6,383 nt of DNA, from the IMG/VR virus record IMGVR_UViG_2778261541_000005; one strand, written 5' to 3'. Positions 311 to 6,383 of this stretch are shown here, in pieces; the stretch's first letter is position 1, and each line of letters opens with the position of its first letter. Origin of the DNA: a virus (Duplodnaviria > Heunggongvirae > Uroviricota > Caudoviricetes). The notes under the pieces were generated by a model. The model was given only the letters and a program-made list of their open reading frames with translations. It was not told the DNA's origin and did no database searches. Position numbers and translations under genes: made by a program.

Positions 311-1087
311 CTAGTAAGTGCCGCGCTTGTTAGGATTCACACCGTACTTTCTCAGCGCTCTACCCGTCCCGCTATTAAGCACCTTTGAAGCCTGAGCGTT
401 AGCTGCATCTGTGAAGGTACTTTCACCATTCTTGACGCTGACGCTCTTAGAACATGCTACACGGGCTTTTAACGCTTCATCTGATAGCTCGCTTGCCGAA
501 TAGCTAAATAGCTCTTTGCAAGTCAACATAGGGCTTCCAAGGCTCGTTGTAGTATTGCCAGTGTTCTTCTTAGAAGTTGTTCCACCGTCATTTGTTGTAG
601 TGGCTTTACCAGTAGCCGCACTAATATCAGTCTGTCCAACTACAGCTTTAAATTCCACACCTTGGAAAGTCATCTGAATACGAAGACCATTAGAGATAGT
701 GTGCTCTTTAGAAGCTTTAAACTGTGTAATCACTGAGTCAGTGATAGAGATTCCATCTTTAGCAACTACGGTGATAAGCTGCTTCTGGTCTCGCCATTGT
801 TCAACCGTAGAAATAAAGGTTTCTACAAGTTGCCCTTGTCTGGTTAATAGAACTGAACCTGTCGAATCAATAACTACGACGCCACTAATAGAGATAGTCT
901 TAGGTGCTCTCTGAACGTTATCAGTGATAGTTTGCCCTGATTGCATAGCCTGAGTTGTCACCATCATCGGTGAGTCATAGTCCATCTGTTCAGTAGCTGT
1001 TAAGGCAAGAAAAGATTCTACATTATCTCTAAGGTGAAAATAGATACCATCTTTACCTGAGTATCTAATTTGCTTTGTGTCAAACAT
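311..1087 (-). CDS. putative tail structural protein, distal-tail-protein-like (258 aa), with a Thr/Gly/Asn-rich linker and a C-terminal extension
   Basis: ATG at 1087 preceded by an AGGAA Shine-Dalgarno. First gene downstream of the tape measure gene, and about the size expected for a distal tail protein. Low-complexity linker [20 protein letters not shown] separates an N-terminal body of roughly 150 aa from a C-terminal domain of roughly 70 aa. Function is inferred from position and size only. Confidence 0.6.
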
Positions 1088-1116
1088 TGTTGTTATTCCT
1101 ATTCTGTTAAGCGTGA

Positions 1117-1171
1117 GCTACGTGAAATCTAATTTTTGGTGGGTATATCTGTTCAGGAGATTTCACGTAGC
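1117..1171. repeat. 14-bp perfect inverted repeat (GCTACGTGAAATCT / AGATTTCACGTAGC) with 27-nt spacer
   Basis: Arms at 1117-1130 and 1158-1171 are exact reverse complements. Sits in the 173-bp gap between the tape measure gene and the downstream tail gene; no flanking U tract, so not a canonical terminator. Confidence 0.55.
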
Positions 1172-1219
1172 ATTCGACTATTCATAGTTGAATCGTCATA
1201 CTAGATAAAGATTAATAGA

Positions 1220-1235
1220 TTGCCATGTGTGGCAA
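1220..1235. promoter_or_regulatory. palindromic site TTGCCA-N4-TGGCAA, candidate operator
   Basis: Perfect 6-bp arms at 1220-1225 and 1230-1235, in the AT-rich region upstream (minus-strand sense) of gene 311..1087. Confidence 0.3.
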
Positions 1236-1260
1236 TAAATATTAGTAGTTCTAACATTGT

Positions 1261-3327
1261 TTATTCCTCTGGGTAAGCTGAGCTAATCAAGGTATCTTCC
1301 TGCATACGATTAATATGCGATGTGGTTCTTTCATCAATAACCTTTCCATCAAGTACCGTCTGAGTTGTGATATTGATTGTCTGAGGCTGAATATTTACTG
1401 ACGGCTTGATAACCTTTAAATCCTGTGTGAATGTTTCCACTCGACCTTTCAGAGTATTTAATGCTTCATGTGAAAACTGTGGGGCATCTTTTGATTTGCC
1501 CTGAACCATAGCCCATAAAACAGCGGCTAAAGAGTTCATGTCACCAGTCAATGCTTGGTCTGTGGGTTCCACCTTTGACCTTACAACTTTATCAATTGGA
1601 TTATCTGACTTACTCATCTGACGTTCATAGAACGGTTTGACAATGGCATTAATCACATCAGTTGTCATACCGACAATCATTACTCTGGTAATTGCATCAG
1701 CTACAGATAATTTTCCTTTACCACCTTCAACACTACCGGAACGTGAATTAATTCTTCCTGCTGCTGTATTTGCTACATTTCCAAGCGTGGAAATAGCCCT
1801 AATTAAGCTCCAGATGCCACCTACAGCACCAATACCAGACCTTACAGCGACAATACCAGCAAGTCCCTTTAATGCACTTAACAGGCCATTTGCGATACCA
1901 TCAGCTACAGCTTTTTGAGTGTCATTTAATTCTCTGTAAGCAAGGGTCACTCTGTCAAAGAATCCCTGCACTCGGTAGCTAATCGTGGTTAAATCATCAA
2001 TACCGTTTGACATACTTTTCATCAAGTCGCCAAAATGTTCACCAAGATTTTTAGATTGACCACCTAGTGAATTAAGTAAATTAGTCAGTGACCTTGTAAA
2101 ATCTACAAGACCTTCCTGTGAACCATCGAACATTAAGGCCAGATTATTGTTCCATGAATTACTTAAGCGGCCTAACTGCGTCTGAGTAGAGTTAATAATC
2201 TTTTCCCATCCACCAGCTTTATCAATCATCCTTCCCATTTCAGCGGATACTTTAGGGAGAACATCTTTAGAAAGAACCTTACCGTCTTTCATGGCCTTGT
2301 CTAATTCTTCCGTAGTCATCCCAAGGCTTCTGGCAAATAACTGAAAAGCACCTGCCATTCTGTCACCTAATTGACCGCGTAGTTCTTCAGCCTGAATCTT
2401 TCCTTTAGAAGCCATCTGTTCGAAAGCTTTTAGAATCCCATTAATTTCATCAGTGCTTAAACCCATTAATCTGGATGTACCAATCACATTACTAAATAGG
2501 GATTCTTTCTGGCCTGCATCCATATCACCAGCACCAGCGGAAAACTTAGCAAAACTGCTTAATGTTTCAATCTGGTCAACACCAGTATTATTAGCAAGAT
2601 TCTTAACAAATTCTGTAGCTCGTTTAGCACCTTCATCACCTAAAACGAATTGTGCCGCTCGTTGTGATGCTTCTTTTTTCAGACCAACTTCCATAACCTT
2701 CTTGTAAGCTTCTAAGGCTGTCTGAAAACTATAAATGGCTGTACCTGCTTTGATTGCACTTGTAGCTAATACATCCAGACTATTTGAAGCATTTTCACTG
2801 TGATTATTTTTGCTGGTGGTCTTATTAAACTTAGAAAGTGTTTCACGTAGATTTTGATTTAACTTTGCTAACTCACGATTAAAAGCTTCGTTTCCAAGTG
2901 TCTTGGATTTACTGCTTAAGTTGTAATATTGGCTCTTAAAATACTTCTCAAGCATAGGATTAAAGTCACGAAGCTTGCTCATATTCACGCTATGCGCTGC
3001 TGTGATTGCTCTGTTTCCGCTAATTCGTGGCTGTCTTGCTGCTTTAACAGTTTCTTCAACCTGAGTTTTGAACTTAAAGACCTTCGTAGATTTGGCTCTT
3101 TCCTCCAGCTTATTAAAAGTCTGGTTAATCTTCTTTTCCATATTCCCCAAAGAGGCTGTTAAATCCTTATCCATGCTCTTTGGGTTAACTTTAAACGCTC
3201 TATTCAAATTACGTTCAATTCTTTGTGCTGACTGCAAAGCTGCCTTTTCAACTCTTTGCAAGCCTTTAATAACGTTTTCATTGAAGCCTAGCTCAACAAT
3301 AAAACTATCAACTGTAAATTTGCTCAT
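1261..3327 (-). CDS. phage tail tape measure protein (688 aa)
   Basis: ATG at 3327 with an AGAGGTGA Shine-Dalgarno 8 nt upstream. Long helical, Lys/Glu/Gln-rich N-terminal region; segment ELRGQLGDRMAGAFQLFARSLGMTTEELDKAMKDGKV resembling the conserved tape-measure domain; Gly-rich hydrophobic stretch LKGLAGIVAVRSGIGAVGGIWSLIRAISTLGNVANTAAG typical of these proteins. Confidence 0.85.
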   Translation of the reverse strand: MSKFTVDSFIVELGFNENVIKGLQRVEKAALQSAQRIERNLNRAFKVNPKSMDKDLTASLGNMEKKINQTFNKLEERAKSTKVFKFKTQVEETVKAARQPRISGNRAITAAHSVNMSKLRDFNPMLEKYFKSQYYNLSSKSKTLGNEAFNRELAKLNQNLRETLSKFNKTTSKNNHSENASNSLDVLATSAIKAGTAIYSFQTALEAYKKVMEVGLKKEASQRAAQFVLGDEGAKRATEFVKNLANNTGVDQIETLSSFAKFSAGAGDMDAGQKESLFSNVIGTSRLMGLSTDEINGILKAFEQMASKGKIQAEELRGQLGDRMAGAFQLFARSLGMTTEELDKAMKDGKVLSKDVLPKVSAEMGRMIDKAGGWEKIINSTQTQLGRLSNSWNNNLALMFDGSQEGLVDFTRSLTNLLNSLGGQSKNLGEHFGDLMKSMSNGIDDLTTISYRVQGFFDRVTLAYRELNDTQKAVADGIANGLLSALKGLAGIVAVRSGIGAVGGIWSLIRAISTLGNVANTAAGRINSRSGSVEGGKGKLSVADAITRVMIVGMTTDVINAIVKPFYERQMSKSDNPIDKVVRSKVEPTDQALTGDMNSLAAVLWAMVQGKSKDAPQFSHEALNTLKGRVETFTQDLKVIKPSVNIQPQTINITTQTVLDGKVIDERTTSHINRMQEDTLISSAYPEE

Positions 3328-3354
3328 TCATGTTTCACCTCTTAAGTGTTCATA

Positions 3355-3398
3355 TACGAAAAAGGGGAGGACCAACCAATTAAGGTTAATCTCTCCCC
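3355..3398 (-). terminator. rho-independent terminator on the minus strand, between gene 3447..3650 and the tape measure gene
   Basis: Minus-strand RNA: GGGGAG (3398-3393) ... CUCCCC (3369-3364), with an inner AACC/GGUU helix, followed directly by U5 (3363-3359). The tape measure Shine-Dalgarno lies about 20 nt further downstream. Confidence 0.6.
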
Positions 3399-3446
3399 GT
3401 ACTATAGATTCGATAGAACCTATCTCATATACCCAACCAATTCTTG

Positions 3447-3650
3447 TTACCTAACCAGATAATAATTACCATCTTCACCGACAATCTGACAATCACTTGG
3501 TAATTTATCAAGACACCATTTGGCTATTTTCCTGATTCTATTCTTTTGCTTAGAGGTGGATGATTTGATTCGTTTTGGTTTGTTGGGTTGTTCTTTCAGT
3601 CGTTCACTAATTGCTTTAATAAGCTCATAGCGTTCTGTTAAATCAAACAT
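3447..3650 (-). CDS. hypothetical basic small protein (67 aa)
   Basis: ATG at 3650 with a GAGGTG Shine-Dalgarno; 24 nt after the stop of the upstream gene. Lys/Arg-rich centre (PNKPKRIKSSTSKQKNRIRKIAK) suggests nucleic-acid binding. No family recognised. Confidence 0.6.
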   Translation of the reverse strand: MFDLTERYELIKAISERLKEQPNKPKRIKSSTSKQKNRIRKIAKWCLDKLPSDCQIVGEDGNYYLVR

Positions 3651-3674
3651 TAATCACCTCTTCTTAATTCATAA

Positions 3675-4385
3675 TCAAAGTGCCTTGCTATACTTCTGAG
3701 AAATCTTAGTAAGCTGCTCAATATCAGCCTGCATAGCAATCTTCTTCTGCGTTTCATAGTCACTGATTAGTTGCTTCATAGCTCTAAGCTGGTTAGCAAG
3801 CTCTTGCTTAAATCTGTTTAATTTTTTGCTATGACGCTCAAGTAGATTCTTTTCAGCTAACTGACAAATCTCTTCATCTGTTTTATCAGACAGTAAAATA
3901 TATGAACCTGTACCGCGTGAAGCTGGTCTAACATCAATTAAACGGAATCCTTCAGGGATGTTTTGAAGAACTTTTGAGATATTCTCTCTTGCTGTACCAA
4001 AACCATCATTATCTTCAACTGAGTAATATACGAATGGATTTTGTCTAATTTCCACTTCAATATCAAAATCAGTTGGCTTCTCAGTCTCTTCAAAGTTCTT
4101 CACATTGTCGTAAGCGTCATCTAGTCTAAGGCGCTGTGCTTTTAGCAGTGGGTAATATTCACGCTCAAGCTCAAGTAGTGCTTCAGTTTTGCAGATATCA
4201 GGCATTTCTTGAGGCTCAGGGGCTACAAAGGTAATTTGCTTTGGTGACATCTTTAACTCTTGCTCAAGTGCAATTCTTTCATCGTGTTCTTTACGCTGAA
4301 TAGTGATAGCTGGATGTTCACCCTGTGGTGACCAGTCACCGAAGCTATCAATCACTTTGCCATTAATGTAAATATCATTTGTCAT
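3675..4385 (-). CDS. hypothetical acidic protein (236 aa) with predicted coiled-coil C-terminus
   Basis: The ORF track starts this frame at a GTG at 4430; the ATG at 4385 is preferred because AGAGGA lies 6 nt upstream. Strongly acidic; C-terminal heptad-like segment ELANQLRAMKQLISDYETQKKIAMQADIEQLTKISQKY. No family recognised. Confidence 0.7.
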   Translation of the reverse strand: MTNDIYINGKVIDSFGDWSPQGEHPAITIQRKEHDERIALEQELKMSPKQITFVAPEPQEMPDICKTEALLELEREYYPLLKAQRLRLDDAYDNVKNFEETEKPTDFDIEVEIRQNPFVYYSVEDNDGFGTARENISKVLQNIPEGFRLIDVRPASRGTGSYILLSDKTDEEICQLAEKNLLERHSKKLNRFKQELANQLRAMKQLISDYETQKKIAMQADIEQLTKISQKYSKAL

Positions 4386-4393
4386 TGTTTTTC

Positions 4394-4496
4394 CTCTTCT
4401 AAGTAGGTATTCAGTTTTTAAAAAGCACACCTGACAGCCTACGAACTTAGAAGAGACTTAAAAGCGTTTGCCAAGTATGCTTTTTAAAAACTGAAT
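4394..4496 (-). promoter_or_regulatory. structured 5' leader of gene 3675..4385: 19-bp perfect inverted repeat plus 11-bp anti-Shine-Dalgarno-like repeat
   Basis: ATTCAGTTTTTAAAAAGCA (4409-4427) is the exact reverse complement of TGCTTTTTAAAAACTGAAT (4478-4496), with a 50-bp spacer. Inside the spacer, ACTTAGAAGAG (4445-4455) is the exact reverse complement of CTCTTCTAAGT (4394-4404), which overlaps the GAGG core (4393-4396) of the Shine-Dalgarno. Confidence 0.5.
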
Positions 4497-4597
4497 GACC
4501 CTAGATAATTTCTTATAAAGGGCCATTCATAAGGTGAAGAAATTAAAAGAACATCTAAAGGATTCAATAATGAATTGAATGAACAAAGACTTTTGAG

Positions 4598-4626
4598 ATG
4601 ACCTCTTATATAGTTTGAGAGGTCAT
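4598..4626. repeat. hairpin, 9-bp perfect stem (ATGACCTCT / AGAGGTCAT) with 11-nt loop
   Basis: Arms at 4598-4606 and 4618-4626 are exact reverse complements. Intergenic; no U tract on either strand, so not a canonical terminator. Confidence 0.45.
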
Positions 4627-4720
4627 GTAGCGAAAAGCATTGCACCTTTCCAACTCAGAATATCCATCCATCGGATTATTGAAAGAAAAATAAGAGAGAA
4701 TTGCTCTCCCTATATATACA

Positions 4721-4749
4721 ATTATGTCATGCTCAAGGTTATTTGTCAA
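4721..4749 (-). promoter_or_regulatory. putative sigma70-type promoter (TTGACA-17 bp-CATAAT), minus strand
   Basis: On the minus strand: perfect -35 TTGACA (4749-4744), 17-bp spacer, -10 CATAAT (4726-4721). Sits just downstream of the peptide ORF stop (4775) and about 330 nt upstream of gene 3675..4385. Confidence 0.45.
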
Positions 4750-4774
4750 CAGCTTTTTAACAGATTGGTAACAT

Positions 4775-4840
4775 TTATACTTTAATAGATGCACCTGCAA
4801 TCATACCAATCAATACAAAACAGATAATCACCAATTCCAT
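4775..4840 (-). CDS. candidate small hydrophobic peptide (21 aa, MELVIICFVLIGMIAGASIKV), not in the ORF track
   Basis: ATG at 4840-4838 overlaps the TAA stop of the 109-aa gene (TAATG); GGTGGTG Shine-Dalgarno-like motif 5 nt upstream; TAA at 4777-4775. One predicted transmembrane-length hydrophobic segment. Confidence 0.3.
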   Translation of the reverse strand: MELVIICFVLIGMIAGASIKV

Positions 4841-5236: not shown

Positions 5237-5266
5237 GGGTGGCCTGTACAGTGGTATTACCCACCC
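5237..5266. repeat. GC-rich hairpin (GGGTGG / CCACCC) with palindromic CTGTACAG in the loop
   Basis: Stem 5237-5242 / 5261-5266; loop holds the perfect 8-bp palindrome CTGTACAG (5244-5251). Lies in the 179-bp gap upstream of gene 4840..5169. Confidence 0.35.
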
Positions 5267-6211: not shown

Positions 6212-6383
6212 GCAAACGGTGTTTAGGTTAGCGCAATATTTATCGCTTGGTAGCTCATGGCTTAATCGGGTCGCTTGACGCTGAAGATAATTTGTTACTG
6301 TGCTTGAGCTAATATCATCAAGACTTCGGGTAGTGACTCCAACTTACTGATAGTGTTTTATGTTCAGATAATGCCCGATGACC

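Follow-up and report, generated by a model that had tools for sequence, protein, structure and literature searches.

The locus studied here raises the question of where the expression of a phage-related tail-gene operon is controlled, if a near-consensus promoter is separated from the first gene by a long stretch of RNA. It lies in the IMG/VR virus record IMGVR_UViG_2778261541_000005 (Caudoviricetes), a DNA of 6,383 nt which was analyzed at its full length and is referred to below as the window. An earlier note, made from the letters of this DNA alone, had ranked TTGACA-17-CATAAT (4749-4721) first among the promoter matches of the window and placed it at the head of a leader of roughly 330 nt, which could be controlled by attenuation or hold an independent small RNA. 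Our analysis points, with moderate confidence, to a sigma-70 promoter that serves the tail-gene operon of a phage-related island and the output of which would be gated after initiation, on the leader RNA. Coordinates are those of the window, and features are on its minus strand unless stated otherwise.

A Conserved Promoter Block Upstream of the Tail-Gene Operon

The promoter scan placed a −35 hexamer TTGACA at 4749-4744 and, after a 17-bp spacer, a −10 hexamer CATAAT at 4726-4721, with the TG of an extended −10 element at 4729-4728. Both hexamers are thus near consensus within the 16-18 bp spacing of sigma-70 promoters and the TG stands one base 5′ of the −10. This site, TTGACA-17-TGaCATAAT (4749-4721), is the sole 11/12 site in the window, which upholds its proposed rank as best match and adds the TG to it. 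It should be noted that random windows of the same dinucleotide make-up contain an 11/12 match in 23% of cases, a share that drops to 1.7% when the TG must be present as well; the sequence match by itself is modestly unusual, weak evidence that proves little, and the case for the promoter therefore rests on its conservation.

This conservation extends over the block TGTTACCAATCTGTTAAAAAGCTGTTGACAAATAACCTTGAGCATGACATAAT (4721-4773), as delimited by the promoter scan and the alignments of relatives. The block, TGTTACC...CATAAT, is nearly invariant in an alignment with eight relatives, six of which were retrieved via the protein encoded by the first gene of the operon (open reading frame ORF236), and it is almost unchanged across 69 distinct upstream sequences, in which the small ORF just 5′ of it diverges freely. 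Two distant Escherichia coli members found by blastn keep the −35, the spacing and the −10 even though the promoter pattern was not used as bait: L102 has TTGACA-17-TAAGAT, where the TG is lost, and L103 has TTGACA-17-TGcCATAAT. The 17-bp spacing is constant in all relatives, and the TG is present in 77 of the 79 unique leaders.

An ORF236 homologue starts 319-523 nt past the promoter block in every locus with enough sequence. Within the 79 unique leaders no further promoter-like site is conserved on the sense strand, nor is any on the antisense strand, so the tail-gene operon (311-4385) is transcribed either from the 4749-4721 promoter or by read-in from upstream. An antisense RNA from the plus strand was considered and rejected: the promoter-like site at 4543-4571 occurs in one of these leaders, and none is conserved. 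Taken together, the sequence comparisons make it very probable that 4749-4721 is a genuine promoter and that the RNA behind it is a long, structured leader without coding function. With a consensus −35, a 17-bp spacer and an extended −10 it looks, by sequence, strong and independent of an activator, and because of this we place the control on the leader RNA. Transcription usually starts 6-8 nt downstream of the −10 hexamer, which gives A4715, T4714 or A4713 (4713-4715) as the predicted start.

The spacer and the 30 bp upstream of the promoter are conserved far beyond the needs of promoter function. Three TGTT(A/G) direct repeats at 4773, 4762 and 4751 (4748-4773) run from −58 into the −35 hexamer; they follow one another at a phase of 11 bp, or of 10 bp in some relatives, and are kept in divergent members despite changes in the intervening bases. 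These repeats and the over-conserved spacer suggest that a DNA-binding regulator may also act at the promoter. The same region holds an A-tract (4758-4754) that resembles what we take to be a proximal UP subsite.

The Leader Is Structured and Shows Covariation at the RNA Level

From the predicted start near 4714 to the ATG at 4385 the leader measures 329 nt, in agreement with the length first proposed. Its fold reaches −99 kcal/mol compared with −68.7 ± 4.7 kcal/mol in shuffled sequences (z = −6.4), and three of its helices show covariation, which we designate H1 (4711-4693), H2 (4626-4598) and H5 (4498-4408). Many of their kept pairs are G:U, a mismatch in DNA and in RNA of the opposite strand, and we therefore read them as structures of the minus-strand RNA. 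Pair counts were taken on alignments of the arms only, extracted by sequence anchors, which makes them lean towards the tested structures; controls with slid partners address this bias. Covariation is given below as the number out of 500 shuffles that reached the observed covariation score.

Modules have been gained and lost among the relatives, which makes the leader a mosaic. Some relatives carry inserts that the window does not have: 27 nt that form a hairpin (GAGGATAGTCTTCTATCCGAAGTCTAT) and separate H1 from the start site, 28 nt (GTGAGGTATGTTCTATACCGAACATTCT) that interrupt the invariant block described below, and an insert of 30-35 nt in the loop of the hairpin T2 (examples of leader inserts are found in L005 at about 1225-1250 and in L001 at about 9145-9172). 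A run of GATG tetranucleotides, GATGGATGGAT (4662-4672), varies from two to five copies among relatives, and elsewhere unrelated modules take its place.

A coding function of the leader was tried and discarded, as the frames from the invariant block span 5-53 aa and are frameshifted between relatives. The same applies to a leader-peptide attenuator translated from AGGUG-CA-AUG, the products of which would be 5-34 aa in the ATG frame and 6-53 aa in the GTG frame, again frameshifted among relatives. A cmscan search of the window against all 4227 Rfam families at E ≤ 1 returned four weak matches at chance level, far under the gathering scores (psRNA2 at 23-77 and, on the long hairpin, three models of plant microRNA precursors), and hence no credible riboswitch or curated cis-regulatory RNA in Rfam; no tRNA or tmRNA was found in the window either. 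The longest identity or complementarity between the leader and the FelixO1-like phage phiSUSP1 is 13 nt, within the 11-15 nt obtained with shuffles. No phage record showed similarity to the leader at E ≤ 1, and our literature searches found no paper describing it.

An Invariant Single-Stranded Block Precedes H2

The most conserved part of the locus is not any of the helices but the single-stranded block at 4663-4631. These 33 nt, AUAUUCUGAGUUGGAAAGGUGCAAUGCUUUUCG, include the motif AGGUG-CA-AUG and have at least 90% identity in every column. In the minimum-free-energy fold the 3′ end of the block, CUUUUCG (4637-4631), can pair with CAAAAGU (4595-4589) below H2; this putative stem never varies. 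A search of IMG/VR with a 14-base pattern of the block gave 37 stretches, composed of 1 new member, 7 known loci and 29 chance matches; within IMG/VR, the block is specific to this element family.

H2 (AUGACCUCU-loop-AGAGGUCAU, 4598-4626) had been suggested as a hairpin before and is real by the measure of covariation: its 14 arm variants are 98.6% paired, three pairs have changed on both sides through G:C, G:U and A:U series, none of 500 shuffles was as good, and slid partners pair at 44-57%. The sequence UGCUUUUCG together with H2 could be taken for a boxA/nut-like element; its match to the presumed boxA consensus is partial, and we do not claim this assignment.

A Conserved Hairpin at the Predicted 5′ End

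The first hairpin of the transcript, H1, has the form AGGGAGAG-CAA-TTCTCTCT in DNA (AGGGAGAG-CAA-UUCUCUCU as RNA; 4693-4711) and is recovered by the terminator scan, folding and covariation. The U-rich tract UAUUUUUCUUUC (DNA TATTTTTCTTTC; 4681-4692), also listed by the terminator scan, follows it directly. The hairpin has a free energy of −6.9 kcal/mol in the window, with three G-C and two G-U pairs, and ranges from −5 to −9 kcal/mol across relatives. Its 13 arm variants are 98.1% paired, two pairs have changed on both sides and many are G:U, and the observed score was reached by 6/500 shuffles. Other relatives have an equivalent hairpin, AGAGAG-AAUUG-CUCUCU, at the same place.

The earlier note had placed a hairpin at 4710-4692 and a U-tract at 4691-4680 and seen in them a possible attenuator. 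Both elements are present at the place described (here 4711-4693 and 4692-4681), but they do not form a conserved unit, and what relatives share is the hairpin: a U-rich tail follows H1 in about 43% of the loci, and the remaining approximately 57% carry GAAUUAAA... or AAAAUCAU... instead. The combination of a conserved G+C-rich stem with a U-run, as in a terminator, is thus not what we find here, and with a weak stem and a tail missing from more than half of the loci, the role of attenuator or terminator is not supported for the family. For the same reason a short RNA of about 30 nt that ends at 4680 is not a conserved product. In this copy, H1 may terminate a fraction of the transcripts. A stem-loop at the very 5′ end is a geometry known to protect RNA from 5′-end-dependent decay; H1, at 2-4 nt from the predicted 5′ end, would fit such a protective element by analogy.

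Terminator-Like Hairpins Farther Downstream

Control by termination, if it operates in this leader, is more plausibly located farther downstream than H1, at a hairpin which we call T2 in the window and at two hairpins, T1 and T2, in most relatives. T2 (GAAUGGCCC...GGGUCAUUC, 4528-4493) is a hairpin of 36 nt, followed by AG and the run UUUUU at 4490-4486 (4486-4528 in total), and was identified from the fold and the relatives with a free energy of −16.5 kcal/mol in the window; the terminator scan did not list it because its loop exceeds the limit of the scan. The family form of T2, AAAGCCCU...AGGGCUUUU, is present in 77/79 unique leaders, always with a U-run after it, and the canonical T1 (GCCCUAA-loop-UUAGGGC followed by UUUCUUU) is present in 57/79. 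Both are oriented for the minus strand and lie between the sole conserved promoter and the first gene. Terminators in this position imply that read-through is conditional, as the operon has no other promoter. Should the window give rise to a discrete short RNA, its default product would be about 225 nt long, and not 35 or 120 nt.

What had been described as nested repeats ahead of the gene 3675..4385 resolves into the 36 nt of the T2 hairpin (4528-4493) and a second hairpin, of 91 nt (4498-4408), which is H5.

H5 Presents a Complement of the ORF236 Ribosome-Binding Region

The repeats that constitute H5 were already noticed, and are confirmed; the complementarity of its loop to the ribosome-binding site (RBS) of ORF236 is a feature that the earlier note did not contain. 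H5 (4408-4498) combines a stem of 24-26 bp with a poorly structured apical region of about 32 nt, and folds at −46.4 kcal/mol (z = −8.0); free energies of −26 to −42 kcal/mol were calculated for all of its variants. The 24 pairs of the stem are 92% paired among relatives, 15 of them have changed on both sides, no shuffle out of 500 reached this score and slid controls pair at 29-50%. The G:U pairs of the upper stem point to a structure of RNA rather than to a DNA palindrome.

The apical region exposes an anti-Shine-Dalgarno sequence, GUCUCUUCUAAGUU (4444-4457), which is able to form 12 contiguous pairs (−16.2 kcal/mol) with the RBS region UACUUAGAAGAGGA (4405-4392) that precedes the ATG of ORF236 at 4385-4383 (4383-4405 together). 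In each of the 79 unique leaders, no other site of the leader pairs as well with the RBS region as the H5 loop does, with a median of −16.9 kcal/mol compared with −11.5 kcal/mol for the next best leader site. Loop and RBS region co-vary in four types: type A combines the loop CUCUUCUAAGU with the RBS region ACUUAGAAGAG, type B UCUUCUAAGUGU with ACACUUAGAGGA, type C UUCACCUCU with AGAGGUGAA, and type D AUUCACCUC with GAGGUGAAU. Types A and B pair poorly with the targets of C and D and vice versa, as cognate combinations reach −14 to −17 kcal/mol and combinations across the two groups −5 to −11 kcal/mol. Type C is present as a single copy in 44/44 genomes that carry it.

The linker between H5 and the RBS region is about 3 nt in the window. 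A contact between loop and RBS therefore needs either the opening of the lower stem, which is composed of A/U pairs only, or action in trans.

The RBS of the second gene, ORF67 (AUUAAGAAGAGGUGAUUAAUG, 3651-3670), resembles that of ORF236, and 11/12 pairs with the H5 loop are possible; it stands out in the window, where five matches to the target motif compare with 0.69 expected. As a second target in trans it was rejected, given that it shows no co-variation with the loop type in relatives.

Proposed Control after Initiation and Alternative Explanations

We infer the start site, termination, the signal for read-through, the effect on translation and a link to a helper phage; the sequence of events that we favor would be as follows. 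The promoter is, to judge by its sequence, strong and probably constitutive, which would leave control to the non-coding leader RNA of about 330 nt. H1 would shield the 5′ end and, in this copy, might be a leaky terminator for its own promoter and for upstream read-in. The invariant block and H2 could be the recognition site for a protein or an RNA, and likely the dock for a factor that relieves the block. T2, or the two hairpins in most relatives, would halt most transcripts at about 225 nt unless read-through is allowed. On transcripts that do read through, the H5 loop would limit the translation of ORF236, either in cis once the A/U-rich base of the stem has opened, or in trans as an antisense-type stem-loop; RNase III may cut H5.

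Several observations weigh against this interpretation. The promoter sequence itself served as bait for the 88 loci used to follow the diversity downstream of it, and promoter identity among these loci is thus given by construction. Promoter-like sites are not in excess in the window (12, compared with 16.9 ± 3.7 in shuffles), and neither, by scan against shuffles, are terminator-like sites. The antisense strand of the leader folds well too (z = −5.8). As for termination, H1 is weak and its U-tract not conserved, the best terminator, T1, is missing from this very window, the stems of T1 and T2 (GCCC/GGGC in T2) never vary and thus provide no covariation support, and the T2 loops, at 13-45 nt, are longer than suits a good terminator. 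No antiterminator gene was recognized among the neighboring ORFs (Pfam, PHROGs, NCBIfam) or in annotated relatives. With respect to translation, the distance of about 3 nt from the base of H5 to the RBS region makes a pseudoknot with an intact H5 sterically implausible, H5 (about −37 kcal/mol) should outcompete the 12-bp helix between loop and RBS (about −16 kcal/mol), and part of the complementarity is explained by a pyrimidine-rich loop facing a purine-rich Shine-Dalgarno sequence.

Among the alternatives, one would make a discrete small RNA of about 170-250 nt, ending at T2 (or at T1 in relatives), the main product and the mRNA secondary, with H1 protecting the 5′ end, the terminator providing the 3′ end and the 33-nt block as a seed on host, island or helper-phage RNAs. 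The layout of strong promoter, 5′ hairpin and terminator with a U-tail would suit such an RNA, as would a single-stranded block (4663-4631) that is more conserved than any helix, and there is a precedent in StxS, made from PR′-tR′ of Stx phages (PMC7547250). We nevertheless regard it as doubtful: no target is apparent, with the longest match to phiSUSP1 no better than in shuffles, no Rfam family corresponds to it, and T1 is missing from the window. Furthermore, in an operon without another promoter, read-through must occur and the leader is also a 5′ untranslated region, which means that this possibility overlaps with our preferred explanation more than it excludes it. A different emphasis would be on H5 as an immunity or autoregulatory RNA of the P1 C4 / P4 CI type: once excised, it would act as a trans antisense RNA on the ORF236 RBS of its own element or of incoming relatives, through a translation block and polar termination, and the four types would be immunity groups. 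A very stable stem with an open apex complementary to its target is the classical design of an antisense RNA, and the co-variation of loop and RBS in discrete types, in two groups that pair poorly with each other, would be expected of immunity; the short linker in the window disfavors a pseudoknot in cis, and a constitutive-looking promoter without a recognizable repressor gene next to it parallels P4. Ordinary compensatory drift within a cis element can, however, produce discrete types as well. In addition, at E ≤ 1 Rfam yields no C4 match and no other family, a single target site stands where P4 and P1 have two, and the RBS of ORF67 resembles the target here without co-varying with it across relatives; overall we find this unlikely.

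It seems very improbable to us that the conservation is one of DNA, with operators for a regulator at the promoter and inverted repeats kept for protein binding, replication or packaging. Such an explanation would account for the over-conserved spacer and upstream 30 bp, for TGTT repeats that persist at a phase of 10-11 bp despite changed bases between them, and for an antisense strand that folds nearly as well as the sense strand, and long inverted repeats like H5 can be conserved as DNA palindromes as well. It is contradicted by H1, H2 and the upper stem of H5, which are kept via G:U intermediates that would be mismatches on DNA or the other strand, by U-runs which for T1 follow the terminator-like hairpin on the minus strand only, and by the complementarity of loop and RBS, which has no rationale at the DNA level. 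The regulator site at the promoter is compatible with control on the leader RNA, and the two may coexist. Finally, as an extension of control on the leader RNA, one may speculate that the leader controls an undescribed family of satellite-like islands which exploit or block virulent FelixO1-like phages, with a terminated leader RNA made from the constitutive promoter as long as the cell is uninfected, a signal of the infecting phage releasing termination and H5 serving in trans as a type-specific immunity RNA; on present indications this is decidedly improbable.

Comparison with Known Leader Controls

In its way of working the leader would resemble several known leader controls of phages and satellites, and by sequence or fold it belongs to none of them. 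In Stx phages, the constitutive late promoter is followed immediately by a terminator, and the product is a functional Hfq-binding small RNA, StxS (PMC7547250). The shared features with PR′-tR′ (6S RNA/StxS, Q antitermination) are a promoter independent of an activator, terminators within a few hundred nucleotides and virion genes beyond them, with a short terminated leader RNA as the expected default product, as in the case of the Stx phage (PMC7547250). The order of promoter, terminator and virion gene is thus that of PR′/Q systems, a likeness of architecture only, but neither the ORFs of the window (Pfam, PHROG, NCBIfam) nor the annotated complete relatives include a gene of the Q family, and we identified no Q-binding element or sigma-dependent pause signal here. 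The leader is also longer and contains an anti-Shine-Dalgarno hairpin, and it resides in an 11.7-kb island with two recognizable virion genes and not in a lambdoid phage.

In P4, processing of an untranslated leader yields the CI RNA, which causes premature termination by pairing with targets that flank it (PMC4825925). As in P1/P7 C4 and P4 CI, our leader is untranslated, begins at a promoter that looks constitutive and places a stable stem-loop 5′ of a target in the same transcript; further parallels are a loop that complements the RBS region of the gene next downstream and co-varying types among related elements. For C4, this comparison draws on general background on the mechanism in P1. 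Differences are that no C4 sequence or structure of Rfam matches here, that a single target is found (the ORF236 RBS, in 79/79 leaders) with no second co-varying one, where C4 and CI have two, and that C4 and CI fold into a cloverleaf-like structure, whereas H5 is a single hairpin of 24-26 bp; a processed H5 that acts in trans would be a putative further parallel.

From the IsrK locus of Salmonella Gifsy-1, one promoter gives rise to a terminated small RNA and to a translationally inactive read-through mRNA, and by pairing with the long RNA the short one switches on its translation (PMC4825925). The parallel lies in a prophage-borne promoter with either internal termination or a read-through mRNA in which a leader structure blocks translation (PMC4825925). 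In contrast to IsrK, the promoter-proximal part of our leader has no complementarity to H5 or the RBS region besides the H5 loop, and there is no sequence relationship.

Two further likenesses are purely structural. H1, located 2-4 nt from the predicted 5′ end, recalls the 5′ stem-loops of the ompA type, to which it has no sequence similarity. RNase III needs about 20 bp, and with a stem of more than about 20 bp H5 is similar to leader hairpins cut by this enzyme, such as those of the lambda N leader and the T7 early RNAs.

Found in about 9% of complete E. coli genomes and without a model in Rfam, the leader would constitute a new family of cis-regulatory RNAs and would be an example of layered control, in which a strong promoter, terminators and a hairpin complementary to the RBS are combined. 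Its interest derives from this prevalence, from the clean covariation and from the undescribed island under its control, on which it offers a handle. If H5 types do confer immunity, they would fix which islands can be co-expressed.

Genes of the Operon and the Surrounding Island

All genes of the window are on the minus strand. The operon that starts at the promoter (311-4385) comprises ORF236 (4385-3675) and ORF67 (3650-3447), both without a family match in Pfam, PHROGs and NCBIfam, a tape measure protein (3327-1261; PF20155, TIGR02675) and a Dit-like protein (1087-311; PF21821). Over its full length, the tape measure protein shares 30% identity with its counterpart in FelixO1-like phages, the Dit-like gene has 77% DNA identity to the gene that comes right behind the tape measure gene in phiSUSP1, and the gene order is identical in all annotated relatives. 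For ORF236 we also found no phage homologue. The AlphaFold model of its product is of mediocre quality, with a predicted local distance difference test (pLDDT) score of 67.7, is composed mostly of long helices and has no fold match at E ≤ 0.001; the NCBI label "transposase," given to this protein and more than 3000 relatives, is not supported by any Pfam, PHROG or NCBIfam model or by a fold match.

The window represents an internal fragment of a chromosomal island of about 11.7 kb, with a small and a large serine recombinase at its ends. The island encodes, in this order, the small serine recombinase, a Dam methylase or helix-turn-helix protein, several ORFs and an HNH nuclease, followed by the promoter and leader and then by ORF236, ORF67, the tape measure protein, the Dit-like protein and the large serine recombinase. 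Complete relatives are L001 (about 3500-15200), L098 and L103, and several insertion sites are used (yciI/tonB, mdtG, the yecN side and ymdF/wrbA). The only recognizable virion genes of the island are the homologues of two adjacent tail genes of FelixO1-like lytic phages (Ounavirinae). DNA of the promoter and of the promoter-proximal half of the leader was found in 478/5426 complete E. coli genomes, exclusively on chromosomes; these matches cover at least part of the region from the promoter to the "CATTCATTATTGAA" stretch, and 40 sampled match rows mostly span query positions 1, 19 or 27 to about 245, with the weakest two being shorter.

The island could be a satellite, a defense element or a decayed prophage, and the signal that switches on the leader is probably key to this question. 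Literature searches returned no published description of it, and metagenome contigs of 11-12 kb showed no terminal overlap and hence no circular or excised form. The copy in the window is a remnant: the large recombinase gene is cut at about 52, with its last approximately 225 nt kept in the region 52-330, the left end of IS1 (GGTAGTGACTCCAACTTACTGATAGTG...) begins at 6330 (6330-6383), and positions 1-57 match IS1-adjoining DNA in many plasmids and in the phage-plasmid RCS47.

Two ORFs lie 5′ of the promoter, one of 109 aa (5169-4840) and one of 21 aa (4840-4775). The latter encodes a hydrophobic peptide, MELVIICFVLIGMIAGASIKV, in 21 codons (4775-4840), beginning with an ATG that overlaps the stop codon at the end of the 109-aa frame. 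In relatives, a different hydrophobic peptide of about 25 aa is found at this place (e.g., MGLIIAWTALGLFVGCWVGNTVNKN); its presence is kept, its sequence is not. In the gap of 180 nt 5′ of the 109-aa ORF we noted a G+C-rich hairpin, GGGUGG-N18-CCACCC (5237-5266). At the other end of the operon, a strong terminator-like hairpin at 283-302, AAGGGGCT-ATGA-AGCCCCTT followed by TTTTCATTT on the plus strand, is situated between the convergent Dit-like gene and recombinase remnant and probably ends both.

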